Below, in pieces: positions 44,219-60,410 of a stretch of 64,000 nt of DNA (positions are counted from its first letter, which is position 1; each line of letters starts with the position of its first letter). The stretch covers positions 5,321 through 69,320 of the forward strand of contig CAKOPC010000003.1 in assembly GCA_934098705.1 (NCBI GenBank), in the 5' to 3' direction. The position numbers and the translations under genes were made by a program. The notes under the pieces were generated by a model. It was not told the DNA's origin, did not search any database, and saw only the letters and a list, made by a program, of their open reading frames with translations. The DNA comes from an uncultured Bacilli bacterium. GTDB lineage: Bacteria > Bacillota_I > Bacilli_A > RF39 > UBA660.

Positions 44219-44464
44219 TTATTTTAATTCAAAAATTGATTTCAACACATTATAAATTACATCTACTACTATTGAATTTCCAGCCTGGTGATATAAATAA
44301 GTTTCTGCACATACCCTTTTTGCTCTATTATATTCTTCATCACTAAACCTTATAAGTCTCCAAGCCTCTTTGGATGTTAATTTCCTAATTATACAAATAA
44401 AAATGGAAATTTTAAAGTACAATTTCTTAGACTTTATATCTTTGACAGAATTAATGAAAAACAT
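44219..44464 (-). pseudogene. C-terminal fragment of a C5 cytosine DNA methyltransferase (motifs IX and X only)
   Basis: RKLTSKEAWRLIRFSDEEY (motif IX-like, LTxxExxRLxGFxD) and QAGNSIVVDVI (motif X, GNSV). The N-terminal catalytic motifs are absent. Confidence 0.55.
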
Positions 44465-44510
44465 AAATTTTCATTAGATTTGTCAAAAAATATTAACTTA
44501 TTTTAAATTT

Positions 44511-44534
44511 GCGTACCTAAAAGTGTACCTAAAA
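44511..44534. repeat. Tandem pair of GTACCTAAAA repeats, outer left flank of island
   Basis: GTACCTAAAA x2 in direct orientation; the same motif recurs at 44705-44726 and 58170-58189. Confidence 0.6.
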
Positions 44535-44566
44535 TTACTTAATAGTTCTAAAATTCTTTAATATAA

Positions 44567-44600
44567 ACAAAAATGAGAGCTTTCGCTCTCTTCAGAGGGC
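44567..44600. repeat. Left direct repeat (att-like): ACAAAAATGAGAGC-tttc-GCTCTCTTCAGAGGGC with internal hairpin
   Basis: Matches 58238-58280 (ACAAAAATGAGAGCG-atataagttaat-CGCTCTCTTCAGGGGG) in both arms; only the loop differs. Confidence 0.5.
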
Positions 44601-44704
44601 TCGCCCTTTTATTCTTTGTATGTGTTAATTCCTTTTAATTTCGGCCTTTTATGGTCTTTTTGTTTTAGCAACAACCTTATTAATTTGGTATTTATTAGTG
44701 TGTT

Positions 44705-44726
44705 GGTACCTAAATGGTACCTAAAA
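44705..44726. repeat. Tandem pair of GGTACCTAAA repeats inside the left end of the island
   Basis: GGTACCTAAAtGGTACCTAAAA. Confidence 0.6.
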
Positions 44727-44764
44727 TCACAATAATTGTAATTAGATAATGATATTAAAAATTT

Positions 44765-46477
44765 CTAATCCCAAGTATTATTTTTCATACAAAAATCACA
44801 TGAATCATCCAAAAATATATTTGAATTATCTGTCGCAAAATTATTTGATAATCCCGTCATTAACAAGCCACATCCAAATAATTCTAAAGGATCATTGCCA
44901 ATTATTTTAATTGTTTTATCATAATCCCAATATAAATCAGTAGAATCAGCAAATAAATAACAATATTTGTAATCATTTTTTTTAAATTCTTCGTACTTTT
45001 TCTTTCCCTTAATTTTATAGTTTCCTCTTTCTCCAAAGAATTTATTAATATATGCTTGTCCATAAAAGAATGATTCTAATTCTTTTTCATTAGGAATACA
45101 TCTTTCTTCATTAAAAATTATTTCAACAATTCTTTTACAATTTATTACTGATATATTGCAATTATTATGTAGCCTTTTTATTAATGCTTTCTTAATTGAA
45201 TCAATACTATTTCCTGCTATTAACACTTCAGCATCTCTTACATTAAATTTATCATTTATTAATCTTAAATAGCCATCATAATAATGGTATTTTTTATTAT
45301 TAAATCCATTGGCTTCGAAAATACTACCGTTTTCTCCATAGAAGCAGTTATAAATACCATCTTTATATTTCATTAAAAATTCATGATTAGGATCTTCAAC
45401 TTTAATTATATTATTCAATACTCTATATAAATCTTTAAGTAAGCCATCTTGCTCAATGGCATATGAGTAATCTAAATCATTTTGATAAATTTTATGTGCT
45501 GGCTCTGTTCTAAGTTTTCTAATTTGATTGAGTTTTTCATAAGACATCATATTAAATAAGTCATATTGACCAAAATATGTTTTAAATAATCTTAAACCCC
45601 TGAACTCTTCTTTTTTTAGATCCTCTAAAGTAAACTCGTTATTATTTTTCATAGTTTCATATTCTTCTCTTATTTTCTTTTTTAAATCTTTTCCATTAAT
45701 ATTATCTAAAAAGATTTTTGCTAATTCCATCATAAAATTAAATCTATTCATTTTTGTGGGATAAAATAATGGCATGTAAAATTGTAATTCAGAAGCATCA
45801 TATTCATTATTAAACAACTTAAAATTATATTTACTTTCAAATATATAATTAACTATTCTGATTCCCTCTAAAAGAACATCATAAATACTTTCTTCATCTA
45901 TATCTAAGAACTCTCCCAAAAATAAGTTTTTAATATTGTATGAATGCATTTCATATCTTCTACCATCATCTTCAATCATAAATGGTTGTAATATTAACTG
46001 GGATTGTTCAGACAAATCTATCAAATCAACCATTAACATACCAATAACAATTTTATTTTCTTCTAAATCATGACATAAACATAAATCTTTTATATATACA
46101 TCTAATTTAGAATTTTCTGTTGAACAAACGTATCCTCTATAACCACTCCAATGAAAATGGAATTTAGGATTATTCAAAAACAAATGCATAATTTCCTCAT
46201 CGAAATATATAATATTCAATGCAAAATAATCTTTAATTAACTCTTTTTCAAAACGATTTAACCCTATTCTTTCAATTTCTTTTTTATAATTTTTATAAAA
46301 TTTTTTATCTAAGAAATAATAATCAGGTAATTCTTTATTTGTATATATGTATTTATACTTTAAAAGATAATTCTTTATATTTTCACTAACATTTAATCTG
46401 CATGCAAATCCACGGCCGTCAATAAAATTCTTACAAACAGCTAAAACCTGTTCATTATCTAATCTCTGCATTTTCAT
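44765..46477 (-). CDS. Large hypothetical protein (570 aa), no recognizable motifs; candidate restriction/defence cargo
   Basis: Own promoter and terminator. Sits between the R-M operon and the island end, next to the methyltransferase fragment. Confidence 0.4.
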   Translation of the reverse strand: MKMQRLDNEQVLAVCKNFIDGRGFACRLNVSENIKNYLLKYKYIYTNKELPDYYFLDKKFYKNYKKEIERIGLNRFEKELIKDYFALNIIYFDEEIMHLFLNNPKFHFHWSGYRGYVCSTENSKLDVYIKDLCLCHDLEENKIVIGMLMVDLIDLSEQSQLILQPFMIEDDGRRYEMHSYNIKNLFLGEFLDIDEESIYDVLLEGIRIVNYIFESKYNFKLFNNEYDASELQFYMPLFYPTKMNRFNFMMELAKIFLDNINGKDLKKKIREEYETMKNNNEFTLEDLKKEEFRGLRLFKTYFGQYDLFNMMSYEKLNQIRKLRTEPAHKIYQNDLDYSYAIEQDGLLKDLYRVLNNIIKVEDPNHEFLMKYKDGIYNCFYGENGSIFEANGFNNKKYHYYDGYLRLINDKFNVRDAEVLIAGNSIDSIKKALIKRLHNNCNISVINCKRIVEIIFNEERCIPNEKELESFFYGQAYINKFFGERGNYKIKGKKKYEEFKKNDYKYCYLFADSTDLYWDYDKTIKIIGNDPLELFGCGLLMTGLSNNFATDNSNIFLDDSCDFCMKNNTWD

Positions 46478-46544
46478 ATTATTCCCCCTTAACTTATTAT
46501 TTGATTATACCATATATTCCAATTTATTTTTTTACAAAACAATT

Positions 46545-46580
46545 AGAAATTAAAAAAAGCCACTTTATTAGGTGGCATCA
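46545..46580 (-). terminator. Intrinsic terminator after the methyltransferase gene
   Basis: GCCACC-taataaa-GTGGC hairpin followed by a U-run on the minus-strand RNA. Confidence 0.4.
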
Positions 46581-47522
46581 TTTATTATCAAGGCTATTAA
46601 CATCTTCAAAAAATTCATTAATTGTTTTTACTCTATTGTATTCTTTCTTCAAATTGGTTTGAGACATATTTTCAAGATGTTTTTTAAAATAAACTTGAGA
46701 TTGCTTATCATTATCTATCATTATGCAATGTCTTCCCTCTTCTATACAAATTCTTCCTGTAGTTCCACTTCCAGCGAAAAAATCTAAAACTACTGCTCCT
46801 GGATATGATAATGATTTAACAAATCTTCGTATTATTTCAAGTGGCTTTTGAGTAGGATGCCCAACTCTCTCCAATGAATTACCATTTAGTCTTCCAATTT
46901 CCCATACATTAGTTGGATTCTTACCTTTTATAACATTTTCAGGAATCAATCTTTTATCTTTCAATGCATTTTTTAGTTCTTCAGGAGAATATTTTACTCT
47001 TACTGAATCTAAATCAAAATAATATTTATCAGTTTTTACCAACCATATTACTTCTTCATGCCTATTTGCAAAATACCTATGAGCAGACATACCATTCTTA
47101 TAATACCATATAATTGTATTTACTAATTTCCATTTTGTGTTATGCCTGCAATGATATATTATTTCAGTTAAATCTCCACTTCTTTCATTTCTAAATTGTG
47201 TTCCACCAAAGATAACCAAACTACCACTTTTTGATAAAACCCTATATGCTTCATCCAACCAAGTTCCAGCCCATTCCATATAATTCTCATATGTATCCCA
47301 ATCTGCTAAATCAAGATTATATGGTGGATCAATCAAGATTAACTGAATTGACTCATCAGGAATCTTTTTTAATGCTTTAACACAATCTTCATTAAATAGC
47401 AAAGATATTGATTTTTCTGGCATTTTAAAATCTACACTTGTTTTATTTTTTAAATTATCTTTATTTTTCTTCAAAATTGATCTTAGTGCAGAGTTATTAT
47501 GTGATTTATTATGTATAGCCAT
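46578..47522 (-). CDS. Beta-class amino (N6-adenine or N4-cytosine) DNA methyltransferase
   Basis: Motif IV DPPYN precedes motif I VLDFFAGSGTTG (beta-class order). 314 aa. Abuts the restriction gene. Confidence 0.8.
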   Translation of the reverse strand: MAIHNKSHNNSALRSILKKNKDNLKNKTSVDFKMPEKSISLLFNEDCVKALKKIPDESIQLILIDPPYNLDLADWDTYENYMEWAGTWLDEAYRVLSKSGSLVIFGGTQFRNERSGDLTEIIYHCRHNTKWKLVNTIIWYYKNGMSAHRYFANRHEEVIWLVKTDKYYFDLDSVRVKYSPEELKNALKDKRLIPENVIKGKNPTNVWEIGRLNGNSLERVGHPTQKPLEIIRRFVKSLSYPGAVVLDFFAGSGTTGRICIEEGRHCIMIDNDKQSQVYFKKHLENMSQTNLKKEYNRVKTINEFFEDVNSLDNK

Positions 47523-50192
47523 TTACAAAACCTCCACTTCTAATTTATTTTTCATTAAATCAAGACCAAGCTTTTCCTTTAAATATTCTACGTAATTACC
47601 ATTATCATTAATATAACTATCTGCTAGTTGTTTCATAGTAACATTTTCAGCATCGTCAAATATTATATCACTAAATAGCAATTTTTGTACTTCAATATCT
47701 GATCTTGTCGTATTTATAAATCCCATTATTTCAAGCAATGATACTATAAATGGAACCCTATGTTTAGATGCTTCGGCAGATGGAATTTCTATTCCCCGCG
47801 TTTCACAATAATGGATAGTTCTTTGACTTTCAAAAAACAAAGAATAACAATTTGCTTTAGAAATATTGTGCTTTCTACTATCAAAATATATAAATTGGAA
47901 CATTTGCTTTACTGCATCCATATTCAACATTAAATTAATAAATTGTTTTTTCTTAGTATAATCTTGATTTAAATACTCTTTTATTGGATTTACAAAATCA
48001 GATAAGTTCATTTCCCAACTAATTCCTTTTTCTTTATCCTTAAAACTTAAATCTATATGATTAATTAAATCTTTAAGTAACTCGTAAAGTTTTTCCCCAT
48101 TTTCTGTTAACTCTATAGTTTTTGTCTCATGACCAAGTTTTCTATCGTCAACAATTAACCCCATTCCCATCATTCCCTGAATTTTATATTTTGTTTGTCT
48201 TTGGAATTTTGCTAACGATTCATCCTTATCTAAGTTCCCTCTAAGTCTTATATACTTTTCATTCATATAACCTGTTGTATCATTTTCATATAATGATTTC
48301 AATATATATAATATATGTCCAAAATGTAATCCTTGAGGATAATGATATCCATTTTCTGTTACTTCCCCAATTTCCCTTAAAAATTTCATCCAACTACCAA
48401 AAGAAGAAATATATTTACCACTCTTGTATTTGCCATACATGTTTATATCATCTATACTTGGCTTTTTCTTTATATCAGTCATAACATCATAATAAGCAAC
48501 AATTAAATCATCCTTATTAACTTCATGATCCATTGCATCTTGTAAATCAAGAATTTCTTGAACTTCATCATCAAATTGAACTTCGCATTTTGGATTATAT
48601 TCATATATATTCTTTTCAAAAGCATTTGTACCTTCTTTATTTTTTGTTGTTACTTTTGTAGATAAATACTGTCTGACATAATTTGCTCGCTGATAATTAC
48701 TTATAAAATCCAAAATAATTACTTTATCTTTATTAGATGATATTCTTAATCCCCTACCTAGCTGTTGCATAAATACAGTTTTTGATTCAGTAGGTCTTAG
48801 AAACAGTAATGCTCTAACATTAGGAACATCAATACCTTCATTGAAAATATCAACGGTGAATGCAACTGCAATTTCATTATTTTTAAATGCTTTAATTAAT
48901 TCAGCCTTAGTTTCTGTAGTATTCGTTCCAGATGTTATTGCAACAGCACTTACACCTCTTTCATTAAACAATTTTGCCATTGCCTCTGCATGTCGTATTG
49001 TTACACAAAAGCCTATAGCTTTATCTCCATTACAAAACTGTTGATATTTTTCAAAAATCATTTCATTTCTAGCATTAATAATTAAGTGTCTCTCTAAATC
49101 GCTTTCATTATACTTGATACCATTTCTTCTGATATTTGTATAATCTATATTATCTTTTAATCCATGATATTCATATCCTACAAGGAAACCTCTATCTATA
49201 GCATCATTAATATCATATTCGCATACTTTTTGATAATCAAATAAAGATAGTATGTCTTTTTTATCAGTTCTATCTGGAGTGGCAGTAATTCCTAAAAAGA
49301 ATTTAGGTGTAAAATAATCTAATATTTTTCTATATGTTTTTGCTTCCCCATGATGAACTTCATCAACTATAATATAATCAAAGTATTCTTTACTAAATGA
49401 ATTTAATGTTTCATCTAAACAGAGAGAATCTTTAGATGCAAATAAAATTCTACAATCCCTAACATGTTCTTTTGTTTCTCCTGTTAATAAACCTAATATT
49501 TCATTTGGCCAAACATCTTCAAATGCATTTTTTGATTGTGTCAAAATATCTAATCTATGAACAATAAATAAAAACTTTGCATTAGGATTTTCCAAATAAT
49601 AATTATAGGCATCCATAGCACTTAAATAAGTTTTTCCTGTCCCTGTTGGCATAATAACTAAGCCTTTTGTCCAGCCTAAGTCTCTGCAATTTTTTAATTG
49701 AGGTAATACTTCTAACTGAATTGGATTCGGATCTATTTTTACATCTCCCAATAATTCTGGAGCATACTTTTTTAATGTCAAATTAATTTCATCAAAAATT
49801 CTCTGTCTCCACATAGGATCTTTCAATTGATTATATGAATATCTTCTTAATGTCCATCCATGAAATAATATTTCATTTTGTCGAAATAAATTATCATCAA
49901 ATTGTGCAAATGGAATAATGCCTTCAGCATGATATGTTTCACCATTTACTTCAAATGCAATTTTATTTCCCTCATCAGTTATTATCCCAAAATCAATTTG
50001 TCTTGCATGTCCTTCAGAATCAATAAATGGATACTGGGGAACTACTAATGTCATTTTTTCATTTCCTAAAATTGGAAACAAAAATTCTTTAACAAACAAT
50101 TTCTCACTCTCTGATATTATCTTGTTTTTATATATTTCTAAATACTCTTCACAAGTAATACTGCTTTTGTCTAACAATAAATTACAATTCAT
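47523..50192 (-). CDS. Restriction endonuclease subunit: N-terminal DUF559/Vsr-like PD-(D/E)xK nuclease fused to SF2 DEAH helicase (Type III Res-like) with long C-terminal domain
   Basis: KIAFEVNGETYH...GWTLRRYSYNQL (DUF559-type), Walker A VIMPTGTGKTY, DEAH box IIVDEVHH, motif VI QQLGRGLR. 889 aa. Confidence 0.65.
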   Translation of the reverse strand: MNCNLLLDKSSITCEEYLEIYKNKIISESEKLFVKEFLFPILGNEKMTLVVPQYPFIDSEGHARQIDFGIITDEGNKIAFEVNGETYHAEGIIPFAQFDDNLFRQNEILFHGWTLRRYSYNQLKDPMWRQRIFDEINLTLKKYAPELLGDVKIDPNPIQLEVLPQLKNCRDLGWTKGLVIMPTGTGKTYLSAMDAYNYYLENPNAKFLFIVHRLDILTQSKNAFEDVWPNEILGLLTGETKEHVRDCRILFASKDSLCLDETLNSFSKEYFDYIIVDEVHHGEAKTYRKILDYFTPKFFLGITATPDRTDKKDILSLFDYQKVCEYDINDAIDRGFLVGYEYHGLKDNIDYTNIRRNGIKYNESDLERHLIINARNEMIFEKYQQFCNGDKAIGFCVTIRHAEAMAKLFNERGVSAVAITSGTNTTETKAELIKAFKNNEIAVAFTVDIFNEGIDVPNVRALLFLRPTESKTVFMQQLGRGLRISSNKDKVIILDFISNYQRANYVRQYLSTKVTTKNKEGTNAFEKNIYEYNPKCEVQFDDEVQEILDLQDAMDHEVNKDDLIVAYYDVMTDIKKKPSIDDINMYGKYKSGKYISSFGSWMKFLREIGEVTENGYHYPQGLHFGHILYILKSLYENDTTGYMNEKYIRLRGNLDKDESLAKFQRQTKYKIQGMMGMGLIVDDRKLGHETKTIELTENGEKLYELLKDLINHIDLSFKDKEKGISWEMNLSDFVNPIKEYLNQDYTKKKQFINLMLNMDAVKQMFQFIYFDSRKHNISKANCYSLFFESQRTIHYCETRGIEIPSAEASKHRVPFIVSLLEIMGFINTTRSDIEVQKLLFSDIIFDDAENVTMKQLADSYINDNGNYVEYLKEKLGLDLMKNKLEVEVL

Positions 50193-50406
50193 TTTTATCC
50201 CCCTTATCTACTGAATATTCAACTATATCATCTAACTTGCAATTGAATACTTCACATATTTTCATTAATGTTTCCATTCTTACCATTTCATCTTTTCCCA
50301 TTTTAGCCATTTCGTTTGTTGTAATATCAGCTATTTCACATAATTTAGACTTATTCATGTTATTATCTATCAATAGCTTCCACAACTTTTTATAACTAAC
50401 TTTCAT
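50182..50406 (-). CDS. Small XRE-type HTH protein, probable R-M controller (C-protein)
   Basis: 74 aa HTH (LIDNNMNKSKLCEIADITTNEMAKMGKD). Its 3' end overlaps the restriction gene start by 11 nt. Confidence 0.5.
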   Translation of the reverse strand: MKVSYKKLWKLLIDNNMNKSKLCEIADITTNEMAKMGKDEMVRMETLMKICEVFNCKLDDIVEYSVDKGDKNEL

Positions 50407-50539
50407 ACCTTGCCTCCAATTGTTTTACATAATAATATTTTAACACATATAATTTATCTTTTCAATATTTTTTTGAATATTTCAATATATTTTTTTGCTA
50501 TTTACTTGCATTTTTATCTTTTTAGAGTGATTAATACAC

Positions 50540-50875
50540 ATGGAGGTATTTATGTTAAGAAAATGTACTGATGAAGATATAAGTGATGAAGAATGTGAAA
50601 AGGTTATTGATCCTTTTTATGAAAACTATGATAGTTATTTGGAAGAATATGTTATTCCTGAAGTAATAGCTTTTTATATTGCTAGCTCATTTTATAGAAA
50701 TGCTATGTGGAAAGCAACTTTTGAACAACATTTTAATTCTGCTTTTGATACATTTAATCTGATATGTAGAAATTATAAAAAAATGAAAGCTGAAGTTATT
50801 AAACTACTCAGATTAAAATATTCTCTAGAAATTATTAATAAGGATCCTTTAGACTTCAAAATAATCGAGTATTAG
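50540..50875 (+). CDS. Hypothetical protein
   Basis: 111 aa ORF with GGAGG RBS (ACATGGAGGTATTTATG). Confidence 0.35.
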   Translation: MEVFMLRKCTDEDISDEECEKVIDPFYENYDSYLEEYVIPEVIAFYIASSFYRNAMWKATFEQHFNSAFDTFNLICRNYKKMKAEVIKLLRLKYSLEIINKDPLDFKIIEY

Positions 50876-51051
50876 TATTAGCTAATGCTTTTTTATTGCA
50901 TCAAAAAAGGCTCACATTGAGCCAATAATTTCATCTTTATCAAATACTCTATTTTCCAAAAAACTCACGGAAAACTTAAAATTGTGTGAATTTGAGTGGG
51001 CTGTGGGTGGAGAAAAAAATAATTTTTTAGTATCACTACCCTAGGGGGAGT

Positions 51052-51420
51052 CTATTTACTCTCTATCATTTTTAATAATTCTTCTTTTGTTATTATCCCC
51101 TGTTCTGCTTCCTTATGATGCATAGGACATAATGTTATAAGATTTGTACTATCTAATCTTTTAGAATAATCTTCATCTATTGATACTATATGATGTACTT
51201 GTAAGTCTTTATAGTTAAACATAAATGGTGCTCCCTCATATCCATTTATACATGCCTGACATAAATATTTATCTCTTTTCTTTACTTCTTCTCTTTTTTG
51301 TTTCCATTCATATGTACTTCTAAATCTATCACTTTTACTACTCTTTTTATACCTATATGGTCTTTTACATACGATATTAAAGTCATGTATCTTTCCACAC
51401 ACACTACAAGTTTTTAACAT
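51052..51420 (-). CDS. HNH endonuclease
   Basis: CxxC...HHIVSIDED...N...CPMHH zinc-finger HNH pattern. Confidence 0.65.
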   Translation of the reverse strand: MLKTCSVCGKIHDFNIVCKRPYRYKKSSKSDRFRSTYEWKQKREEVKKRDKYLCQACINGYEGAPFMFNYKDLQVHHIVSIDEDYSKRLDSTNLITLCPMHHKEAEQGIITKEELLKMIESK

Positions 51421-51862
51421 TATTTAATAGTTTCCTATTCTTTTGTTCTATTTGTTTATTATGCTTAAGAAATGCTTTAATATCGTTTTCTACAAATTCT
51501 GGTAGATTTCCCTCATCTAACCACATAAGAGTTTTAAAACAGCTATTGCTAGCATGAGAATCTGTTAATTCTTCAACACCTTTTTTAAAGTATTCACTTT
51601 CTTTCATTTTATCTATGATTGAAATAATATACTTTTTATTTATTTCTTTGCATTTATCTTTTAATTGTGAAATTGTTGGAAAGTATTTTGATTCTGATAC
51701 TATTTCTTTTATAGCATTATTTAATGTTGAATAAGATACATCACTAAAATATTCAAACCAGCTTTCTAATTGTTCTTGATCCGTATTCTTGAAATAGCAA
51801 GCATTTAGATATTTCATACACTTAATAAAAGCAAAATGGGTCATTTTCATTTTCTTCTCCAT
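51404..51862 (-). CDS. Phage-type hypothetical protein (replication-module associated)
   Basis: 152 aa, overlaps both neighbours, in the replication gene block. Confidence 0.35.
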   Translation of the reverse strand: MEKKMKMTHFAFIKCMKYLNACYFKNTDQEQLESWFEYFSDVSYSTLNNAIKEIVSESKYFPTISQLKDKCKEINKKYIISIIDKMKESEYFKKGVEELTDSHASNSCFKTLMWLDEGNLPEFVENDIKAFLKHNKQIEQKNRKLLNNVKNL

Positions 51863-52661
51863 TTTGTCTTGCTTCTATCATTTCTTCTAATTCTTTCATA
51901 GAAATATCATTTAATGTTTTCTTCTTTACTGGTTGATTATAATAGTTTTCAAACTTATCTCCAAACAAAGTATATGGGTTTAAATGTACTACCATTTTAG
52001 TATCTTTCCATTCATAAAATTTCTTATCAATAACTATTTGAAAATCAAGTGTTTTATATCCTTTTTCTATCCAATTATTAACAAGACTTTTTATCTTTTC
52101 ATTTTCCCAATTGTATGAAGAATTAATTTTCTTATTTAAATAATCAATAACATCTTTTACGACAAAATCGTTACCAGACAAGATAGTTACATCTTCTCTC
52201 TTCTCCACTATATTATTTTTTTCTTCTCTTTTATTTTCTAGACTATTCTTTTCTTTACTTATCTTATCTATACTATTCTTGGTATCCATTTGGTTTCCAT
52301 CTGGTATACCATTGGTGTCCAACATAATATATTCATTATTATCAGCTATATCTAACCTACTAAATTCATTTTGAAAAATAGTAGGTCTATATCTATCATT
52401 TCTAACAGTATTATTTATTTTCCAATGTTTTATGGCGATCACATCAGAATCAAATTTATAAATAAAAGATTTGTCTATTAAAGATTGTAAATCTTCATTT
52501 GTAGCACCAACGAGCTTCATATAAGATCTATAGTTTTTAGATAGCCCATCATCATCTGCTAACATACCCATATGAAAATATAGACATTGAGCTTCAGCAG
52601 ATAGTTCTAAAAAGTCATCACTTGTTGTAACAACCTTATCAAACATTCTTTTTTGAGCCAC
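51822..52661 (-). CDS. Phage replisome-organizer-like / replication initiation protein
   Basis: N-terminal MAQKRMFDKVVTTSDDFLELSAEAQCLYFHMGMLADDDG (phage replisome organizer N-terminal-like); C-terminal TLFGDKFENYY block. Confidence 0.4.
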   Translation of the reverse strand: MAQKRMFDKVVTTSDDFLELSAEAQCLYFHMGMLADDDGLSKNYRSYMKLVGATNEDLQSLIDKSFIYKFDSDVIAIKHWKINNTVRNDRYRPTIFQNEFSRLDIADNNEYIMLDTNGIPDGNQMDTKNSIDKISKEKNSLENKREEKNNIVEKREDVTILSGNDFVVKDVIDYLNKKINSSYNWENEKIKSLVNNWIEKGYKTLDFQIVIDKKFYEWKDTKMVVHLNPYTLFGDKFENYYNQPVKKKTLNDISMKELEEMIEARQNGEENENDPFCFY

Positions 52662-52689
52662 AATTGTTTCCTTTTGATAAAGATGAAAT

Positions 52690-52953
52690 AAAATAACAAT
52701 TATTGTTTCTCATAAGCGGAAACCTCTTTTAGATAATTAATATCTATATTGAAATATTTTAAAACTTCAACCATAGGTACCAATCCTCTATTACGAACTT
52801 TGGAATCATCTCCATATAATGATATAGCAATTTAACTCCTAATGGCATATACCTTATTTCTTCCAACACTGCCAATTTTCATAATATCAGTTGCTGATGC
52901 CCACTGACTTGATACTACTTGTAATAATTGTTCTGCAGTTAGTTTTTCACTGT
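52690..52953 (-). pseudogene. Small phage-type gene interrupted by an in-frame stop
   Basis: MNSEKLTAEQLLQVVSSQWASATDIMKIGSVGRNKVYAIRS*IAISLYGDDSKVRNRGLVPMVEVLKYFNIDINYLKEVSAYEKQ* in a single frame. Confidence 0.3.
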
Positions 52954-53010
52954 TCATTCTTATCACTCTCCTTATTATTTAATAGTGTTTAAACTTTGCT
53001 AGACTTCTAA

Positions 53011-53144
53011 TTACAGTTTATATTGGAAATAATCATATATAAACCACCTACTTTCTACCTTTGATAACTACATTTTACATTTTAAATGGAATAATGTAAA
53101 TAGTTTTTGATAAACTTAATTTACTTTTTACAGTTTAAATGTAA
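53011..53144. promoter_or_regulatory. Three copies of a 17-bp palindromic operator (TTACAKTTTAWATKGWA) in the divergent lysogeny-switch region
   Basis: TTACAGTTTATATTGGA (53011), TTACATTTTAAATGGAA (53075), TTACAGTTTAAATGTAA (53128). TTACA...TGTAA inverted symmetry. Confidence 0.45.
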
Positions 53145-53199
53145 TTTTAGTTGACTTTAGGGAAAAATCGGTGTATATTGGTAACAGAGGTGATAAGTA

Positions 53200-53871
53200 A
53201 TGAATAGTAAAAATACTGATCCTAAAATATGCTTTGCTACTAATCTTAAAAAATACATGGAATTAAGAAATGTTAGTAGAAAGAAATTATCTGAAGATAT
53301 TAATATTAAATATTCAACTATATGCGAATGGTTAAAAGGTACGATGTTACCACGTGCAGATAAAATGGAAATAGTCGCAAATTACTTTAATACGACTTCA
53401 TCTAGATTATTAGAAGATCCAAATGCTGAATTATTGGTATATAAGTATCCTTTTGTAACTAAAATACCTGATGGATATACATTGGAACAAGCATCTGACG
53501 AATTTTTCTCTGGTTGGGGTGTTATTCAACATGTAAAACAAGTACCTAACCACTATGGATTAACAATTACTCATGAATGTAATCCTATGCAACCTCGTTA
53601 TGCTAAAGGTGAACCTGTTTCTTTTAAACTTACAAGCTATGTTTCTGATTGTGATTGCGATTATTTAATTAGAAGAAAAGGCCATGATGCAGAAATAGTA
53701 AGAATCTATGAAGACCAAGAGCCTCCTTTTATAATTGAAGATGATGAAAATGATGATCGTGAGATTATATATTATGTTATGATTCCTGTCTATAATGAAG
53801 AAAACAATTATGAACCATATCATACATTTAACTTAAGTGCTGATTATGAAATAATTGGAAAAGCAGAATAA
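53200..53871 (+). CDS. CI-like repressor (XRE HTH N-terminus plus C-terminal oligomerization/peptidase-like domain)
   Basis: HTH LKKYMELRNVSRKKLSEDINIKYSTICEWLKG. 223 aa. Divergent from the replication genes, upstream of the integrase. Confidence 0.5.
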   Translation: MNSKNTDPKICFATNLKKYMELRNVSRKKLSEDINIKYSTICEWLKGTMLPRADKMEIVANYFNTTSSRLLEDPNAELLVYKYPFVTKIPDGYTLEQASDEFFSGWGVIQHVKQVPNHYGLTITHECNPMQPRYAKGEPVSFKLTSYVSDCDCDYLIRRKGHDAEIVRIYEDQEPPFIIEDDENDDREIIYYVMIPVYNEENNYEPYHTFNLSADYEIIGKAE

Positions 53872-54015
53872 AAAAAGACCTACTGCGCCAACAGTAAGTC
53901 AAATTGGATAACCACAAAGTCTAGCAAACTTTAAACACTATTAGATAATAATGTAATTGGGTTTCCTTTTACATTATATCACTTTATTGAAAATCACACA
54001 AGAAAGGACGATATA

Positions 54016-55127
54016 ATGGGAGTATATAAAGCTAAAGATGGCAAAACTAAAGATGGTCGTATCTGGTTCTTTAAGTTAAGATATCAAGATATGGATGGTA
54101 GAAACAAACAATACAAATCAGGAAAATATGCTACTAAAAAAGAAGCAGAAGAAGCTGAACTTGAATTTAGATTAAAAATACATAGACATGAAAATATGGA
54201 TAAAATAACCTTAGATGAAATGATTGATATATTTATTGAGAATAGAACTTCTACTATTGAGGTTAAACCTAATACTCTATATAATTACGGAAATAAAAAA
54301 ACTCATTTAAAAAGTTTATTAAATATTAAATTAAAAGATTTTAATATCAATCACTATGATAATTGGAAAAAGCAAATGAATGAAACTAATATCTCAACAC
54401 GATATAAAAATGATATATTAAAATTTCTAAAATCAGTATTAAACTTTGCTATGACTTGGTATGATTTTAATCTTAATAAAGTTTATAATAAAATGACTAA
54501 GTTTAGTAACGCTTCTGATATACCAAAAGAAATGATGTATTTTACATATGATCAATGGAAACAATTTATTTCTGTTGAAACTAATTTACAAAGTAAAGTT
54601 ATGTTTGAAATATTATATTATTGTGGATTAAGAAAAGGTGAACTTAGAGGATTAACTTGGAGAAATGTTGATCTTGTTAATAAAACCTTATCCGTTAAGA
54701 AACATATCACAGATCGTGGTAGTTCGGTTAAAGAGTTCCAATTCTCCACTCCAAAGACTAAAAGTAGCATAGAACCCTACCACTTAATAAAGTTCTCTTA
54801 AACGACCTTAAAATGCTCAAAAATGAGGTATCTAAAGAGTATGGATTTAATGATGATTACTTTGTTATTGGCGATGCTTTCCCTGTTGCAAGTAATACTA
54901 TTACATCAAGAAAAAATCGTAACTGCAAATTAGCAGATGTACCTCAAATTAGGATCCATGACTTCAGACATTCTTGTGCATCTCTAATTGTTAATAATGG
55001 TGCTAATATAACTGTAGTAGCTAAATATCTAGGTCACACTAAAATAGAAGAAACTTTAAACACCTACACGCATCTTTTTAACTCTGCTTTAAATGAAGTA
55101 GTAGATTTAATTGATAAGTTAGAGTAA
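54016..55127 (+). pseudogene. Tyrosine recombinase/phage integrase, frameshifted near 54770-54815
   Basis: N-terminal SAM-like and core-binding region in ORF 54016..54801. Catalytic region continues in ORF 54813..55127 (HDFRHSCAS...GHTKIEETLNTYTH). The linking segment ...LPLNKVLLNDLKMLKNE is readable only in a shifted frame. Confidence 0.7.
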
Positions 55128-55163
55128 AATAAAAGCAGGGTTTCTCTGAAATGCATCCCTTAA

Positions 55164-56401
55164 AGTAGACATTAATAAAAAAGAGGGACTACAAAATATG
55201 ATAAAATACATTTCCGAAAGGAGGTGTATTTTTATTATGGCAACAAAAGGACAAAAGTTTAAAACATTTACAAATGAAGAAAGAACTGAAATTGTAAGCA
55301 AATACATGTCAGGCAAATATTCATATGCAATTTTAGCAAAAGAATATAACATAAGTTGGAAAACTATAGAAAGCATGGTTAGAAAATTCAAAAAAACTGG
55401 ACTAACAATTAAAGACAAAAAAGGTAGAAATAATCAATCACATTTAACTAAAGAAGATTGGAAAGAAAGATATGAAATATTAAAAAAATACCAGGCCTTC
55501 CTCAAGGCACAACGAGAGAAAAAGTAACATTTATAAATTTGTATAGAAATAATTATAAACTTACTAACATGTGTGCCGTACTTAATATAAGTCCTAAAAC
55601 TTATTATAAGTATAGAAACAAGGAAGATCCTGATTATTATGATTATTTGATAATTAAAGAAATATTTGATGATTCTAAAGGTACATATGGATATCGTAGG
55701 ATTGTTGAATGCCTACTCCAAAAATATGGTGTAGTTATGAATGGAAAGAAGGTATTGAGAATAATGAAAAAATATAATCTAATGGCTGAATATATAAGAA
55801 AAGCTAAAATTAAACATAAGAACGAAAAAATTGAAGATAATGTTAAACCTAATTTATTAAATAGAAATTTCACTACTGATAATTCTAATAAAGTTTGGGA
55901 TACAGATGTAACGTATTTAATATTTAAAGGTTCAAGAGCTTATTTATCTACAATAATTGATTTATATGATAGACATGTAGTTTCATATGTAATATCAAAA
56001 AGAAATAATTTAAAGTTAGTTATGGATACTTTAAATAAAGCTATATCAAAAGAAAAAGATGTACATGGTTTAATCATTCACAGTGATCAAGGATTCCAAT
56101 ATACATCTTATGAGTACAAAGCTATATGTGAATCGAATGGAATACAAATTTCCATGTCACGAAAAGGAACGCCAATTGATGATTCTCCAATAGAAAGTTG
56201 GCATTCACTCCTTAAGAAAGAAACTCTGTACAACAATAATATTACATCTTTACAAGAATATATTCAACTTGTAGAAGAATGGATATTATTTTACAATACA
56301 ACTAGACTAAAGTCAAAAATTAAGAAAAAGAGAAAAAATTATACAAAAAGAGAAAAATAATTTTCTCTTTTTAATAACCCTCTTTTTTATTAATGTCTAC
56401 T
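55164..56401 (+). mobile_element. IS3-family insertion sequence (orfA 55237..55527, orfB 55539..56360) with perfect 24-bp terminal inverted repeats
   Basis: IRL AGTAGACATTAATAAAAAAGAGGG at 55164-55187 equals the reverse complement of 56378-56401. OrfA is an HTH protein. OrfB carries a DDE rve core (WDTDVTYL...IHSDQGFQYTS...E). Confidence 0.8.
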
Positions 56402-56432
56402 ATTTGGGGTTCACATCATCTCCTAGCTTCTT

Positions 56433-57314
56433 TTAATTTTTATAATTTTGATAATTTGAATATTTTAATTGTTTATCTTTATATTCTTTATATACATCAG
56501 TATGGTTACTAATAAACTTGCTAACATTATCACGATTACATGGATTTTGTTTTTTTATCATCTTATAATATGGTTTTATGCTTTTATCTTTTAATATTCG
56601 TATTAATCCTCTTATTCGATTTGAAACAGCTTCTTTTCCTAAAAATGGTATCATACCCTTATTATAGAATCTTTGGTAAGAATATATTGATTTATTCTCG
56701 CAAAAACTCTTTGGAATAAAAATAATAGCCATATTAGATTCAAAATCAAATGGTAATTTTAAAATTTGATTACTTACCCATTTATGATTAGAGTATGACC
56801 AATATTTTCGTTTAAGCAAAACATCTTGTAAGGGTATATTATATTTCATACATTCTTCTTGTGTATATAATACCAATTCTTCTAATATAAGATTTGATAT
56901 AAAATCAGATAATTTATCAACTCCCAATTTTTCAATCATAACTTCTGCATCAAATATATCTCCTATCATACCAGTTTTAATAGCACTTGAGTCCTTAATC
57001 AAATCAAATATTTTATTACCTAGATGTTCTCCACCAGATAAACCATTTGGTTTATTTCTTGAATAACCTAATCTTGTTTCATTTATTTCACTAAAATTCT
57101 TAGTATATAAATACCCCATTTTATAATCATTATTGATTGCTAATTTTAGTAAATGTGAAAAGTACTGTTGTACAATTAAGCAACATCTTTTCCCCATTTC
57201 ACTCTTATCCATATGCATCATCATAGGATCAATCCATACAGTATTATCTTTTGCCAATTCTATATTAACAAAACCAGCATTATCTGGTATATTATATTTT
57301 GTAAATAATTTCAT
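56433..57314 (-). CDS. Hypothetical protein (293 aa), island cargo of unknown function
   Basis: No recognizable motifs; own RBS (GGAGGAACAAATATG). Confidence 0.35.
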   Translation of the reverse strand: MKLFTKYNIPDNAGFVNIELAKDNTVWIDPMMMHMDKSEMGKRCCLIVQQYFSHLLKLAINNDYKMGYLYTKNFSEINETRLGYSRNKPNGLSGGEHLGNKIFDLIKDSSAIKTGMIGDIFDAEVMIEKLGVDKLSDFISNLILEELVLYTQEECMKYNIPLQDVLLKRKYWSYSNHKWVSNQILKLPFDFESNMAIIFIPKSFCENKSIYSYQRFYNKGMIPFLGKEAVSNRIRGLIRILKDKSIKPYYKMIKKQNPCNRDNVSKFISNHTDVYKEYKDKQLKYSNYQNYKN

Positions 57315-57377
57315 ATTTGTTCCTCCTTCGCTGAATTATTTATATAATAGTTGTGGCTACAAATATTTATATATTAT

Positions 57378-57551
57378 CTACTTTTCTTTACGTACACCTT
57401 TAAATTTACCACCAGAAGTTTTAACATCCATAAATCTTCCATTTGTTGTATTTCTTTTTACAAATAGATTTGTTTTTGTATTTAAAACTTGTGATCGTCC
57501 ACATACAGCTCCTTTTCTGCAATTATCACCATTAGGTTTGTTTACTGCCAT
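57378..57551 (-). CDS. Small basic protein (57 aa), absent from the ORF track
   Basis: Strong RBS AGAAAGGAGGAC 9 nt upstream of ATG. Product MAVNKPNGDNCRKGAVCGRSQVLNTKTNLFVKRNTTNGRFMDVKTSGGKFKGVRKEK. Confidence 0.35.
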   Translation of the reverse strand: MAVNKPNGDNCRKGAVCGRSQVLNTKTNLFVKRNTTNGRFMDVKTSGGKFKGVRKEK

Positions 57552-58169
57552 ATAAAAAGTCCTCCTTTCTTAAATACTCAGAGAACTTGTAAACATAATT
57601 CCATAAATAATCTTTTTTTAATTCATAGGTTGAAATTTGATCAAAGTATGTTATAATAGTTATAGAACATAGGTTGTAATTAGTTCTCTTGTTCAATCTT
57701 GAATACAAATTTGCTAGTGTATTCTTGTATTTCTTGTAGATGTAGCCGTCAACTACATTTGCTATAAGGTATTTGCTCTATTGCTCGCAAATGCTTTTTT
57801 TTTGCATTTTTAGCCTTTTTGAGACATTTTTATAGCATTCTACTGCTGTAACTTATAGCAATTACATTATAGCATAATAAGCCTGAAAAAACAACTGATG
57901 AGACGTTTTTAAGCAAACAAACGAACGCTATTATTAACAGGAAATTTATTATTTATTTTTTTTAGATTTATATCATATGAATTAAACAAAAAAAGAAACA
58001 ACATTACAGTTTCATTTTTTTAATATTTTAGATAAATTTTATTCCAACATAATAATAATTTATTAAATGATTAACGCTATTTCAACTTATACTTTCAATG
58101 TTTTTTTAAAATACACAACCTATCTCATTGATTATTTTTATATCAAAAAGATTCATTATTTATTTAAGT

Positions 58170-58189
58170 GGTACCTAATTGGTACCTAA
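58170..58189. repeat. Tandem pair of GGTACCTAAT repeats inside the right end of the island
   Basis: GGTACCTAATtGGTACCTAAT. Confidence 0.6.
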
Positions 58190-58237
58190 TCCTATTTTTA
58201 GAAATTTATCAAAGCACCAAATCCCTTATATTTCCTA

Positions 58238-58280
58238 ACAAAAATGAGAGCGATATAAGTTAATCGCTCTCTTCAGGGGG
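58238..58280. repeat. Right direct repeat (att-like) with GAGAGCG/CGCTCTC hairpin
   Basis: See left repeat at 44567-44600. Confidence 0.5.
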
Positions 58281-58403
58281 TTTTGGTTGAATACTACTTT
58301 CACAATAACCGTAAAAGCAGTGCGGGTATCATCACCACGCATTTTAATCATAAAGTATTTTTAGTAAAAAGTCAAGGGTGATTTTAAAAATTGTAAAAAA
58401 AGT

Positions 58404-60410
58404 TTACCCCTCTTTTATGGTATCAATAATTTTCTTTTTTAAATTGTCATATTTTTCATCTTTATTATTTAAAAATTCAAGTGAATCTTTTTTTGCTTGT
58501 AAAAGGATTTTATAATCCTCTTTTATGTTAGCAACTTTAAATGTCATGTCTCCACTTTGTTTTACTCCAAATAAATCGCCATGTCCTCTTAATTTAAAGT
58601 CCTCTTCACTTATTTCAAAACCATCATTTGTTTTTGTCATAACATCAAGTCTTGCTGTATCGCTATCACTTATTAAAATACATGTACTTTGCATGTCATT
58701 TCTTCCAACTCTTCCTCTTAACTGATGAAGTGTTGAAAGTCCAAATCTATTAGCATCAAATATTACTATCATCGTTGTATTAGGAACATCAACTCCAACT
58801 TCTATAACAGTTGTACTTATTAATATTTGTGTTTTATTGTTAACGAACCTCTCCATTATTTTATCTTTATCTTGTTGATGTAATTTACCATGTATTATAT
58901 CTATATTATATTTACTTCCAAAAGCAAGATTCATTTTATCTTTTAGTTCAGTAACTGTTGTTAAATCAGTTGTTTCACTTTCTTCAATTAAAGGTGCTAT
59001 AACGTATATTTGGTGGTTTTCTTTTAATTCATCATACATCATTTTTAAAACATCTTTCATCTCTTTAGTTGTTTTTAAATAAGTCTTTATTTTTTTTCGG
59101 CCACTTGGTAATGTTTTAATTGTTGATATATCCATATCTCCATATATAGTTAAGGCATATGTTCTTGGAATTGGGGTTGCACTCATATAAAGTATATCTG
59201 GATACTCTCCTTTATTTTGTAAACTTGTTCTTTGAAGCACACCAAATCTATGTTGTTCATCTGTTATAACAAGTCCTAAGTTTTTGTAACTAACACCTTC
59301 TTGTATAAGGGCATGTGTTCCTATTATTATATCAATACTTCCTTCTTCTAGCATTTTATGTATGTCATCTTTTTCTTTTTTCTTCATACTTCCAGTAAGT
59401 AGTCCTACTTTGATGTTAATGTCTTTAAATAACTTACATATATTTTCATAGTGCTGATTTGCAAGTATTTCAGTCGGGGCCATCAAAGCACTTGTATAAC
59501 CGCTTAAATAGGTTGCATACATAGCAAGTATGGCAATTATTGTTTTACCACTTCCAACATCACCTTGTAGTAATCTATTCATCCTGTATGGTGAATTTAA
59601 ATCATTTAATATTTCAAAAAGCACTTTATTTTGATCCTCTGTTAATTTAAATGGCAATTTTGCTATAAAATTATCAAGTGCCTCATAATTTATATCTTTA
59701 ACAGTACCACTTTGTTTTGTTTTATATTTTAGTTTAACATAATTTATTTTTGTCATGAAAGAAAATAATTCTTCATATTTTAATCTTATTAAAGCTTCTT
59801 TTAACTTTTCATATGATGGCGGATTATGTACGATATTAAGTGCGGTTTTCTTATTTAGAAAGTTATATTTACAAGTTATATAATCAGGAATATAATCATC
59901 TATCTTGTTGCCGTACTGCATTAATGCTTGATTTATAAATACACTTAAATTTTTAGAATTTAGTGATGTTGTTGAGTGGTATACTGCTTCTATCTTCTCA
60001 CCCTTTGGTAAAAGCCCCATTCTAATTTCTGATGCTATTATTGTATTTTTTTCCTTTTCGTATTTACCAATTACAATTATTTCTTTACCAACCTCTAAAT
60101 CTTTTTTTAAGTATGCTCTATTAAATATGGAAACACCAACTATCATACCATCACTTGTTACAAGTCTAACATTCATTTTATTTAAGTTGTTCTTAAGTCT
60201 TATTAATATGGGAGTACAGTCAACCTTTCCATCTACAATACATTTTTCTTGCTCGTTATAATTTCTTAAATCAGTTCTTTTAATTAAATCATATCTATAT
60301 GGATAATGAGTTACCAAATCATCTACTGTTTTTATATCTAATTTTTGAAGTAACATTAAACTTTTTGGTCCTACACCTTTTACTAACTTTACATCTATCA
60401 AGTAAATCAC
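58404..60410 (-). CDS. recG: ATP-dependent DNA helicase RecG
   Basis: 668 aa. N-terminal wedge/OB domain, Walker A LLQGDVGSGKT, DEQH box (ITDEQHRFG), helicase C motifs. Confidence 0.9.
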   Translation of the reverse strand: MIYLIDVKLVKGVGPKSLMLLQKLDIKTVDDLVTHYPYRYDLIKRTDLRNYNEQEKCIVDGKVDCTPILIRLKNNLNKMNVRLVTSDGMIVGVSIFNRAYLKKDLEVGKEIIVIGKYEKEKNTIIASEIRMGLLPKGEKIEAVYHSTTSLNSKNLSVFINQALMQYGNKIDDYIPDYITCKYNFLNKKTALNIVHNPPSYEKLKEALIRLKYEELFSFMTKINYVKLKYKTKQSGTVKDINYEALDNFIAKLPFKLTEDQNKVLFEILNDLNSPYRMNRLLQGDVGSGKTIIAILAMYATYLSGYTSALMAPTEILANQHYENICKLFKDINIKVGLLTGSMKKKEKDDIHKMLEEGSIDIIIGTHALIQEGVSYKNLGLVITDEQHRFGVLQRTSLQNKGEYPDILYMSATPIPRTYALTIYGDMDISTIKTLPSGRKKIKTYLKTTKEMKDVLKMMYDELKENHQIYVIAPLIEESETTDLTTVTELKDKMNLAFGSKYNIDIIHGKLHQQDKDKIMERFVNNKTQILISTTVIEVGVDVPNTTMIVIFDANRFGLSTLHQLRGRVGRNDMQSTCILISDSDTARLDVMTKTNDGFEISEEDFKLRGHGDLFGVKQSGDMTFKVANIKEDYKILLQAKKDSLEFLNNKDEKYDNLKKKIIDTIKEG

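Follow-up and report, generated by a model that had tools for sequence, protein, structure and literature searches.

A 13,681-bp island downstream of recG in an uncultured gut Bacilli bacterium: a probable immobilised copy of a cos-type, PICI-like satellite

The 64,000-nucleotide stretch of DNA analysed here (the window; contig CAKOPC010000003.1 of assembly GCA_934098705.1, from an uncultured Bacilli bacterium) contains, downstream of recG, a compact site-specific integrative element of 13,681 bp. We interpret this island, with a probability of about two in three, as an immobilised copy of a cos-type satellite resembling the phage-inducible chromosomal islands (PICIs), and we infer that such an element depends on a helper phage. 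A preliminary description of the region had already proposed a PICI-like island, and this reading is strengthened by a compact family of relatives with intact integrases and swapped cargo, and by a cos-like block shared with a phage lineage. The window has a G+C content of about 25%, reads normally in genetic code 11 and matches a scaffold from a human-gut metagenome (ENA ERZ28615459, scaffold_35) at 100% identity. Its closest relatives in genome collections, and the homologues of its proteins, carry the NCBI labels 'Bacilli bacterium' or 'Mycoplasmatota bacterium' and are metagenome-assembled genomes. The loci and contigs of other genomes, metagenomes or IMG/VR with which the window was compared are given L-numbers below; L007 and L009 are parts of one contig (Hadza NODE_1288). 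Proteins were annotated by Pfam, PHROGs, PADLOC and NCBIfam scans, and RNAs with Rfam.

The two ends of the island, with their attachment (att) junctions, are as follows.

44566..44600, no strand: distal att junction, made up of a repeat copy, the native terminator hairpin of a small RNA (sRNA) gene (44575-44590, GAAA loop, - strand) and the 12-nt block CGCTCTCTTCAG (44584-44595)
44601..44728, no strand: island end, P' arm, with the tandem arm-type repeats GGTACCTAAATGGTACCTAA at 44705-44724 and an internal terminator-like hairpin
58166..58236, no strand: island end, P arm, with the arm-type repeats GGTACCTAATTGGTACCTAA at 58170-58189
58237..58281, no strand: recG-proximal att junction, made up of a repeat copy, an island-borne replacement terminator hairpin (58246-58271) and the 12-nt identity block (58265-58276)

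The insertion extends from about 44584/44596 to 58264/58276 and has direct repeats at its limits. The proposal of an island of about 13.7 kb between imperfect direct repeats with an internal hairpin is borne out, in that the repeats are real and the limits match those found in other genomes. There are two exact copies of AACAAAAATGAGAGC in the 64 kb, at 44566 and 58237, and three matches when up to two mismatches are allowed, compared with 0.34 expected from shuffles. When the left and right repeats are aligned, each AACAAAAATGAGAGC copy is followed by a hairpin and then by CGCTCTCTTCAG (44584-44595 and 58265-58276). The hairpins themselves are unlike, that of the left copy having a 4-nt loop and that of the right copy a longer stem and an 8-nt loop. 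The GAAA-loop hairpin of the distal junction is the one present at uninterrupted sites; by this comparison the hairpin on the recG side is island-borne and that on the far side is the native terminator. We place the crossover, probably, within CTGAAGAGAGCG (44584-44595 and 58265-58276), and the predicted order at the attP junction is P' arm, CCCCCTGAAGAGAGCG, P arm. The arm-type sequence GGTACCTAA is found in the 64 kb only at 44705, 44716, 58170 and 58181 (0.26 expected), just inside both ends. The P' arm (44623-44728) is 81% identical to the matching end of the L103 element and 73-80% identical over longer spans in other L103-L108 loci, while in L009, a different element, arm repeats occupy the same place in a diverged form (GGTAGC).

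Comparison with related genomes places both limits at the repeats. On the right, L009 and L011, which carry quite different islands, are identical to the window from recG through ...CAACCAAAACCCCCTGAAG, so that the sharing with strains holding other islands starts at about 58272; past CAACCAAAACCCCCTGAAG, L009 has another terminator hairpin and other arm repeats. The end of the L014 contig falls exactly on the recG-proximal boundary. On the left, L007 matches the window as far as 44599 and diverges beyond. An uninterrupted site is found in a related species (L016, RecG 73% identical), in which recG, a homologous small RNA, the GAAA-loop terminator and a flank that is 90% identical to window 44388-44599 are contiguous, and a search of metagenome contigs with the predicted uninterrupted attB recovered four more such sites in related organisms (L109-L112). 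Since the strains with other islands diverge at the repeats and the sites of relatives are uninterrupted, we conclude that the 13,681 bp are an insertion. The flanking repeats thus behave as the att junctions they had been taken for, and the region between them is not contiguous core genome in relatives.

Between these ends lie a conserved backbone and an insertion sequence (IS), together with cargo genes that are described further below.

50540..50875, + strand: conserved backbone open reading frame (ORF) of 107/111 aa, convergent with the HNH gene, with no family match
50951..51051, - strand: cos-like non-coding block of 101 nt, directly past the HNH stop codon, ACTCCCCC...CTCCACCCACAGCCCAC...TCACACAATTTTAAGTTTTCCGTGAGTTTTTTGGAAAAT
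51052..51420, - strand: HNH endonuclease (Pfam HNH, phrog_144), of a type tied to packaging in cos phages
51404-51862, - strand: G39P-like helicase loader (Pfam Inhibitor_G39P)
51822-52661, - strand: DnaD-like replisome organiser, Rep (Pfam Phg_2220_C)
52700..52957, - strand: Cro/Xis-like gene, inactivated by an in-frame TAA at 52832-52834
52958..53199, no strand: divergent regulatory region with two TTACA-N-TGTAA palindromes, at 53075-53099 and 53128-53144
53200..53871, + strand: CI-like repressor with an N-terminal helix-turn-helix (HTH; Pfam HTH_3, HTH_26) and a lambda-CI-like C-terminal domain
54016-54801 and 54813-55127, + strand: tyrosine integrase with an Arm-DNA-binding domain (Pfam), split by a frameshift at about 54770
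55147..56419, + strand: IS3-family insertion sequence, with orfA at 55198-55527 (HTH_28) and orfB at 55539-56360 (rve, rve_3, HTH_21)

The backbone of 4.6 kb, comprising int, the CI-like and cro/xis-like genes, rep, the loader and HNH genes and the 107-aa ORF, recurs in L103-L108 and L121-L125, and in these relatives it is 91% identical to window 50506-55130 over 4,643 bp. Their integrases are intact (370 aa), their CI-like and cro/xis-like proteins have 223 aa and 85 aa (the latter intact, in L103-L108 and L121), and their P' arm is homologous at about 80% identity. The relatives are of about 12 kb and none of them has structural genes. Rep itself has many homologues at 84-96% identity. One type of relative has a cargo of two methyltransferases (MTases), ASCH and an OLD-like ATPase and another a DpnII-type restriction-modification (R-M) system with a 1,067-aa AAA protein, while the slot between int and att holds SocA_Panacea or a reverse transcriptase in others. 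Members of the family sit after the sRNA gene, after a DUF1294 gene with the same core, or in tandem with other islands. The 107/111-aa ORF is present in every island variant, L011 and L007 included, and is by far the most widespread backbone gene, with 637 homologous protein clusters compared with 187 for Rep (at a stricter limit, 1e-20) and 23 for the repressor. Many of the contigs with its homologues are just 0.5-1.2 kb long, as is expected of a conserved gene amid variable cargo. This ORF may be specific to the family; the AlphaFold2 (AF2) model of the 111-aa form has a pLDDT of 54 and was not used. Our comparisons suggest that the family consists of islands of about 12-14 kb in uncultured AT-rich gut Bacilli/Mycoplasmatota. 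Full-text literature searches turned up no description of it, and it is apparently both widespread and undescribed.

The possible packaging function of the island is suggested by the 101-nt block. The block is conserved in all island variants, including L011 and L007, which otherwise have little in common with the window, and including variants without HNH, rep and CI. Its invariant 23-mer is found exactly, and at the same position after HNH, in three IMG/VR contigs (L128-L130, of 30 kb, 35 kb and 8.9 kb, with 29% G+C). Contigs of the L128 type have the gene order DnaD-like Rep, loader, ArpU-like regulator, HNH, block, ParB-MTase, MTase, two small ORFs, terL, portal, protease, major head, adaptor. 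The island HNH protein is 55-56% identical to those of L128-L130, and between island and phage the last 62 nt of the block are 84% identical, compared with 70.7% for the HNH coding sequence. Among deposited phages, the nearest HNH homologue lies in Flavonifractor phage Castelnaud, directly before terS-terL-portal, and in Lactobacillus delbrueckii phages the HNH homologue is the last gene before the genome (cos) end. In the record of Lactobacillus phage LL-Ku a 'cos site' is annotated at nt 1-11, and the end junctions of LL-Ku and Ld25A align with the island block through the ACTCCCCC box, a spacing of about 65 nt and ACACAATTT...TTTTC.....TTTTTGGAAAA. HNH proteins encoded beside terminase genes are essential for the completion of packaging in cos phages (PMC12967558). 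Because the HNH homologues of phages sit at the packaging module and the annotated LL-Ku cos region aligns with the block, we regard the block as a candidate cos region shared with a helper-type phage lineage, on the grounds of position and sequence homology. Head, tail, portal, terminase and lysis families were not found in the island with Pfam and PHROGs. The earlier statement that structural and packaging genes are both lacking has to be qualified as regards packaging, since the HNH gene and the block after it are packaging-related.

The copy in the window carries several defects, and the comparison with orthologues agrees with the preliminary description of a frameshifted integrase, an adjoining IS3 element and an internal-stop pseudogene. 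Searched by tblastn with the intact 373-aa orthologue of L011, the integrase is read in two frames at 91-94% identity, with one base missing at about 54770. The Cro/Xis-like translation reads AIRS*IAISLY where the orthologue reads AIRSEIALSLY, a change from GAA to TAA at 52832-52834 as judged by intact orthologues of 85 and 106 aa. The IS3 element begins 20 nt past the int stop codon and has the characters of its family: orfA and orfB in successive frames, 41-nt inverted repeats with TG...CA ends and a short target duplication (4 bp, TCTC). An alternative code with TGA as Trp was considered as a source of the 'pseudogenes' and rejected, as the flanking genes read well in table 11 and the defects are a 1-nt deletion and a TAA. 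Judged against the orthologues, the island is immobilised by three mutations: the deletion in int, the stop in the Cro/Xis-like gene and the IS3 insertion between int and att. All 22 contigs with an identical RecG that were read, from several samples and two cohorts, hold the same island as far as each reaches, and of the eight places shown four reach int, all four with the same split integrase. The island copy therefore appears to be fixed in its lineage as a resident defence island, and the reading of the region as an immobilised defence island is supported by the int and Cro/Xis-like pseudogenes, the IS3 element and this sharing of the defective copy. As to the IS3 element itself, several metagenome contigs (L115-L117, L012, L013) break inside it, and two full-length copies at this insertion site differ by 1-2.4% from the copy in the window, which is the only one there. 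These breaks and this divergence suggest that the element is present in multiple copies in these genomes.

The features by which PICIs of the Gram-positive type are recognised (PMC6092414) are largely found here. The integrase lies at one end, near the recG-proximal junction, with a duplicated att site, being a pseudogene in this copy and intact in relatives. Next to it the CI-like repressor gene (+ strand) faces a divergent operon of cro/xis-like, rep, loader and HNH genes (- strand). The island, at 13.7 kb, is small and lacks structural and lytic genes. A packaging determinant is present at the level of sequence: there is no terS, and the 101-nt block is shared with HK97-type phage contigs. 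The PICI arrangement of a pri-rep module followed by an origin is absent, as there is neither primase nor helicase and the DnaD-like organiser and G39P-like loader stand in their place. Some PICIs hold HNH genes, and defence genes are found between att and int (PMC10085698, by the authors of SatelliteFinder).

Among known systems, the cos-type PICIs (islands of the SaPIbov5 type among the Staphylococcus aureus pathogenicity islands, SaPIs, and EcCICFT073) resemble the island described here: they are compact, bear int and a replication module, have a repressor together with a divergent regulator, and lack both terS and structural genes. They are also alike in that island sequence is homologous to a phage cos region, and packaging would need a helper terminase and HNH (PMC6092414). 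Unlike them, the island uses a DnaD-like organiser and loader rather than pri-rep, encodes its own HNH, has no recognisable gene for capsid-size redirection, and is known from sequence alone, in an uncultured gut Bacilli/Mycoplasmatota host. With the cos-type HK97-like siphophages (L128-L130; LL-Ku, Ld25A; Castelnaud) it shares the order rep, loader, HNH, cos-like block. Siphophage HNH proteins are 55% (L130) or 35-42% identical to that of the island, with the exact 23-mer in L128-L130. Past the block, however, the island has defence cargo where these phages have terminase, portal, head, tail and lysis genes. P4-like and PICI defence hotspots are similar in having a conserved backbone with anti-phage systems that are swapped rapidly at fixed positions, including the position between att and int (PMC10085698), but the backbone genes of the island differ and its two slots lie after the 107-aa ORF and between int and the P arm. 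As in islands at the 3' ends of tRNA and tmRNA genes, a small structured RNA gene is targeted and the element supplies the replacement 3' segment, which is here a terminator hairpin; the target here, however, is an unannotated sRNA of about 100 nt that belongs to no Rfam family.

Several points weigh against a cos-type satellite. With Pfam and PHROGs we found no gene for capsid-size redirection, no terS and no recognisable interference gene, and the replication module is not of the PICI pri-rep type. A cos-to-cos unit of 12-14 kb is small compared with a phage head of 30-35 kb. The block could instead be a late promoter or a 5' untranslated region (UTR) element. The phages L128-L130 are tied to the host lineage of the island by their G+C content of 29% alone. 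No close relative of the family (>50% Rep identity) was found in IMG/VR, and so there is no sign of it in viral-fraction data. An uninterrupted site was not found in the species of the window, the 22 contigs read that have the identical RecG all holding the island; the uninterrupted sites come from relatives with RecG identities of about 70-73%. Excision, replication and packaging are all inferred by comparing sequences.

Some of these observations would fit an integrative element independent of phages, with its own excision and replication and spread by conjugative mobilisation, natural transformation or vesicles, in which HNH and the block would serve replication or regulation as a promoter, UTR or origin. 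In favour of it, an unrelated island at this hotspot (L009) has a Mob_Pre relaxase, IMG/VR lacks the family, and no terS, capsid-remodelling or interference gene can be recognised in it. The phage copy of the block, moreover, ends where the ribosome-binding site of the following gene lies, as would fit a promoter or leader. Against it, a terminator and a convergent gene come after the block in the islands, where a promoter would have nothing to drive, and this speaks against a role as promoter. The block can also be aligned with an annotated cos region, with equal spacing from the common ACTCCCCC box, and the family has no relaxase, oriT-like nick region or coupling protein. We consider this explanation unlikely. 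It is more doubtful still that the island is an ordinary prophage remnant, that is, a full temperate phage that integrated here and lost its late genes in this lineage, its likeness to a satellite being incidental. The backbone genes do follow exactly the order in which a cos-type phage has its early genes, as far as HNH and cos, homologues of Rep, loader and HNH occur in phages of 30-45 kb, and this copy contains an IS element as well as pseudogenes. The 4.6-kb backbone (91%), the compact size, both att arms and intact integrases are nevertheless shared by three or more other cargo variants in different contexts, and neither IMG/VR nor INPHARED yielded a full-length phage with this backbone. 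In the DNA of deposited phages only HTH segments of about 120 nt match the backbone. A phage origin for the family as a whole, as distinct from a local remnant, is likely. We regard it as very improbable that the region is a static defence locus of the chromosome which never moved as a unit, its repeats having arisen by duplication of a terminator and its phage-like genes by domestication. The apparent fixation of the island in its lineage and the inactivated mobility genes would be in keeping with such a locus, but the same backbone occurs with both ends at other loci and in tandem arrays in other genomes, and the boundaries match the repeats exactly.

If the island is a cos-type satellite, as we favour, its history and cycle might be as follows. 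Integration, to which the comparison of genomes testifies, would have occurred by recombination of attP with the 3' end of the sRNA gene downstream of recG, through the integrase with its arm-binding domain; the element has arm-type GGTACC repeats in both arms. The backbone would be the early half of a cos-type temperate siphophage, ending at the cos-like site, with swappable defence cargo in place of the late genes. In intact relatives the repressor would be relieved otherwise than by self-cleavage, most likely by a product of the helper phage, after which the element would excise and then replicate, and the terminase of a helper with a matching cos would package it into helper capsids. The copy in the window would be incapable of such a cycle and may now serve as a resident defence island with an R-M-like operon, a 570-aa orphan, and DUF8370 and PDC-S38 proteins. 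We suggest tentatively, at somewhat less than even odds, that the family represents a lineage of cos-type satellites not yet described, whose hosts are uncultured AT-rich human-gut Bacilli/Mycoplasmatota, and in which an HK97-like early half keeps HNH and cos, rides on helper terminase and capsids, shuttles anti-phage systems in two slots and inserts, also in tandem, at a C-rich sRNA gene whose terminator it rebuilds.

To our knowledge, well-characterised phage satellites come from only a few cultured genera; if our reading is true, a satellite-like family would be common in a gut lineage that has not been cultured. With a cis-site that is a clear candidate and a candidate helper lineage, both drawn from sequence, the pairing of helper and satellite becomes testable in virome data without cultivation. 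What is new here is the 101-nt block after HNH, better conserved than HNH, shared with phages and aligned to the cos of LL-Ku. The family illustrates the exchange of defence genes on a fixed backbone and adds a small RNA gene to the RNA-gene targets of integration. For this genome, the region is an apparently fixed, immobile defence island with real 'pseudogenes'; its interest lies in the family, the candidate cos site and the helper lineage.

The gene content agrees with the earlier account of replication and HNH genes on one side and a CI-like repressor followed by a tyrosine integrase on the other. The replication module (51404..52661) matches PHROGs 5708, 8489 and 2289, and its phage homologues are below 50% identity. 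Tandem repeats (iterons) lie inside rep at 52192-52321 and are a candidate ori; origins within replisome-organiser genes are known from SPP1 and from lactococcal phages of the P335 type. For the 85-aa Cro/Xis-like protein there is no family match to decide between Xis and Cro. Three TTACA...TGTAA operator palindromes had been reported in the divergent region, where we find only two exact ones and a half-site; across the window TTACA-N-TGTAA occurs 6 times compared with 3.4 expected, which is not significant. The operator region and the CI gene are bracketed by 35-nt inverted repeat arms (52972-53006, and 53917-53951 5' of int; 94% complementary). Each arm is upstream of one gene (cro/xis-like; int), in the same orientation relative to it, and both arms are conserved in relatives. 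An invertible switch is unsupported in view of this orientation and conservation, and the repeat is more likely a shared regulatory sequence. In L011 the int and cro/xis-like genes have no intervening CI gene, and TGATAGTAA iterons are found there instead (L011:18620-18720). The AF2 model of the repressor has a pLDDT of 87, and its Foldseek matches are lambda repressor and the C-terminal cleavage domain of lambda repressor. It has no S24 match in Pfam, and its invariant motif ECNPMQP...EIVRIY has no Ser or Lys at the expected dyad positions. The C-terminal domain is thus probably S24-like and without the Ser/Lys catalytic dyad, the residues being matched by sequence pattern and not by structural superposition.

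The cargo occupies two slots.

44765..50406, - strand: cargo slot 1, four genes (Pfam, PADLOC and NCBIfam scans)
44765-46477, - strand: orphan ORF of 570 aa, downstream of the R-M-like operon
46578-47522, - strand: N6/N4 DNA methyltransferase (N6_N4_Mtase, E 3e-57; PADLOC MTase_II, 1e-98)
47523-50192, - strand: protein of 889 aa with a weak PD-(D/E)xK-like nuclease N-terminus and an SF2 helicase
50182-50406, - strand: HTH_26 controller-like protein, its gene overlapping the start of the 889-aa gene
56433..57551, - strand: cargo slot 2, between int and att, two genes (PADLOC and Pfam)
56433-57314, - strand: DUF8370 protein, PDC-M36A-like, candidate defence gene
57378-57551, - strand: PDC-S38 protein of 57 aa, candidate defence gene

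That defence genes and an orphan make up the cargo is confirmed, the methyltransferase being clear and the 570-aa orphan having no match in Pfam, PHROGs, PADLOC or NCBIfam. The best matches of the 889-aa protein are models of Type IV or Type I R-subunits, under their cut-offs; together with the methyltransferase and the HTH_26 protein it forms a candidate R-M-like operon. The orphan is possibly a novel defence component. In relatives that share the backbone the stretch of slot 1 is swapped for other defence genes, and slot 2 contains RVT_1 in L011, SocA_Panacea in L121 and nothing in L103-L108.

The integration target lies between the island and recG.

58237..58375, - strand: target small RNA gene, with a near-consensus promoter TTGACT-17-TATGAT (58375-58347) and a transcript from about 58340 to 58237
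58404..60401, - strand: recG (Pfam RecG_wedge, DEAD, Helicase_C, RecG_dom3_C), chromosomal, upstream of the sRNA gene

In its predicted fold (z-score -5.9) the sRNA forms two hairpins, which are followed by the unpaired C-rich tail UAUUCAACCAAAACCCCCUGAAG and then by the terminator. Six homologues from different organisms keep the tail and the terminator and, when each is folded separately, have a 9-13-bp hairpin just 5' of the tail with differing stem sequences; homologues are located at L016:12074-12172, L103:7321-7421, L109:441-524, L110:9433-9542 and L112:3143-3257. MAFFT/RNAalifold over the whole sRNA recovered the terminator alone. No Rfam family was found in the whole window at gathering thresholds, and an E-value scan of 58100-58450 gave only weak matches far below them (best E 0.16). 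A tRNA or tmRNA was rejected as the target, as neither was found in the window. Because the junction falls there, the sRNA is conserved and there is no tRNA, tmRNA or Rfam match, the target is, on present annotation, the 3' end of an unannotated, conserved sRNA gene of about 100 nt, for which the island appears to supply a replacement terminator. The element brings its own terminator hairpin and the sRNA gene therefore remains complete. The CCCCCU tail could pair with Shine-Dalgarno sequences.

About 25 loci of this site were examined, and it held small islands only. In other strains of the species of the window the recG/sRNA site has unrelated islands, one of them with a Mob_Pre relaxase, GmrSD, OLD+UvrD (Gabija-like), AbiEii and methyltransferases. 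There is also an island with RVT_1 and a DpnII R-M system (L011), and an element with HTH, rep_org and loader genes, EcoRI-type methyltransferases and GmrSD; these data are from L007/L009, L011, L105 and L121-L123. An internal att copy lies between two elements at L007:2758-2798. The integrases of other hotspot islands are independently disrupted (L103:7535-8647, 250+116 aa; L009:15471-16655, 254+115 aa), and loss of mobility seems to recur at the hotspot.

Two features adjoin the distal junction on the chromosomal side.

44394..44583, no strand: conserved chromosomal flank, normally next after the sRNA terminator, with a twofold GTACCTAA repeat at 44513-44532
ORF 44219-44464, homologous part 44219..44393, - strand: C-terminal fragment of a C5 cytosine DNA methyltransferase (Pfam DNA_methylase, profile positions 275-323 only), outside the island

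The flank is 90-92% identical to the sequence right after the sRNA terminator in L016, L110 and L111, with no island between, and 99% identical in L007, which has a different island. A reading of 44394-44600 as the P arm belonging to an older element in tandem was largely dropped, as L016 and L109-L111 have the flank directly after the sRNA terminator and are island-free. Tandem repeats of the GTACCTAA type occur in the native flank of the window (44513-44532) and of L016, L106 and L109-L111, at the same distance from the core as the arm sites of the islands, and the region 44440-44490 of the window has an inverted repeat, TTGACAAATCTAATGAAAA...TTTTCATTAATTCTGTCAA. With its GGTAC-like repeats the native flank is possibly an island arm that became fixed long ago. 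L112 does not have this flank.

The island had been described as abutting the truncated C5 methyltransferase gene, but the conserved flank of about 190 bp (44394-44583) separates the two. An intact C5 methyltransferase is found in L002 (295+58 aa), whose homology with the window ends at 44390, and because L002 holds the intact gene, the truncation at 44393 is a separate event, unrelated to integration. In L002 (8807-9873) it is present as two adjacent ORFs (295 and 58 aa) beside ABC-transporter and ffh genes. L002 and the island-bearing L003, from one sample, have only about 1.8 kb in common, in two segments (His_Phos and HAD genes) at 96-98.5% identity, which suggests a rearrangement or a mobile segment.

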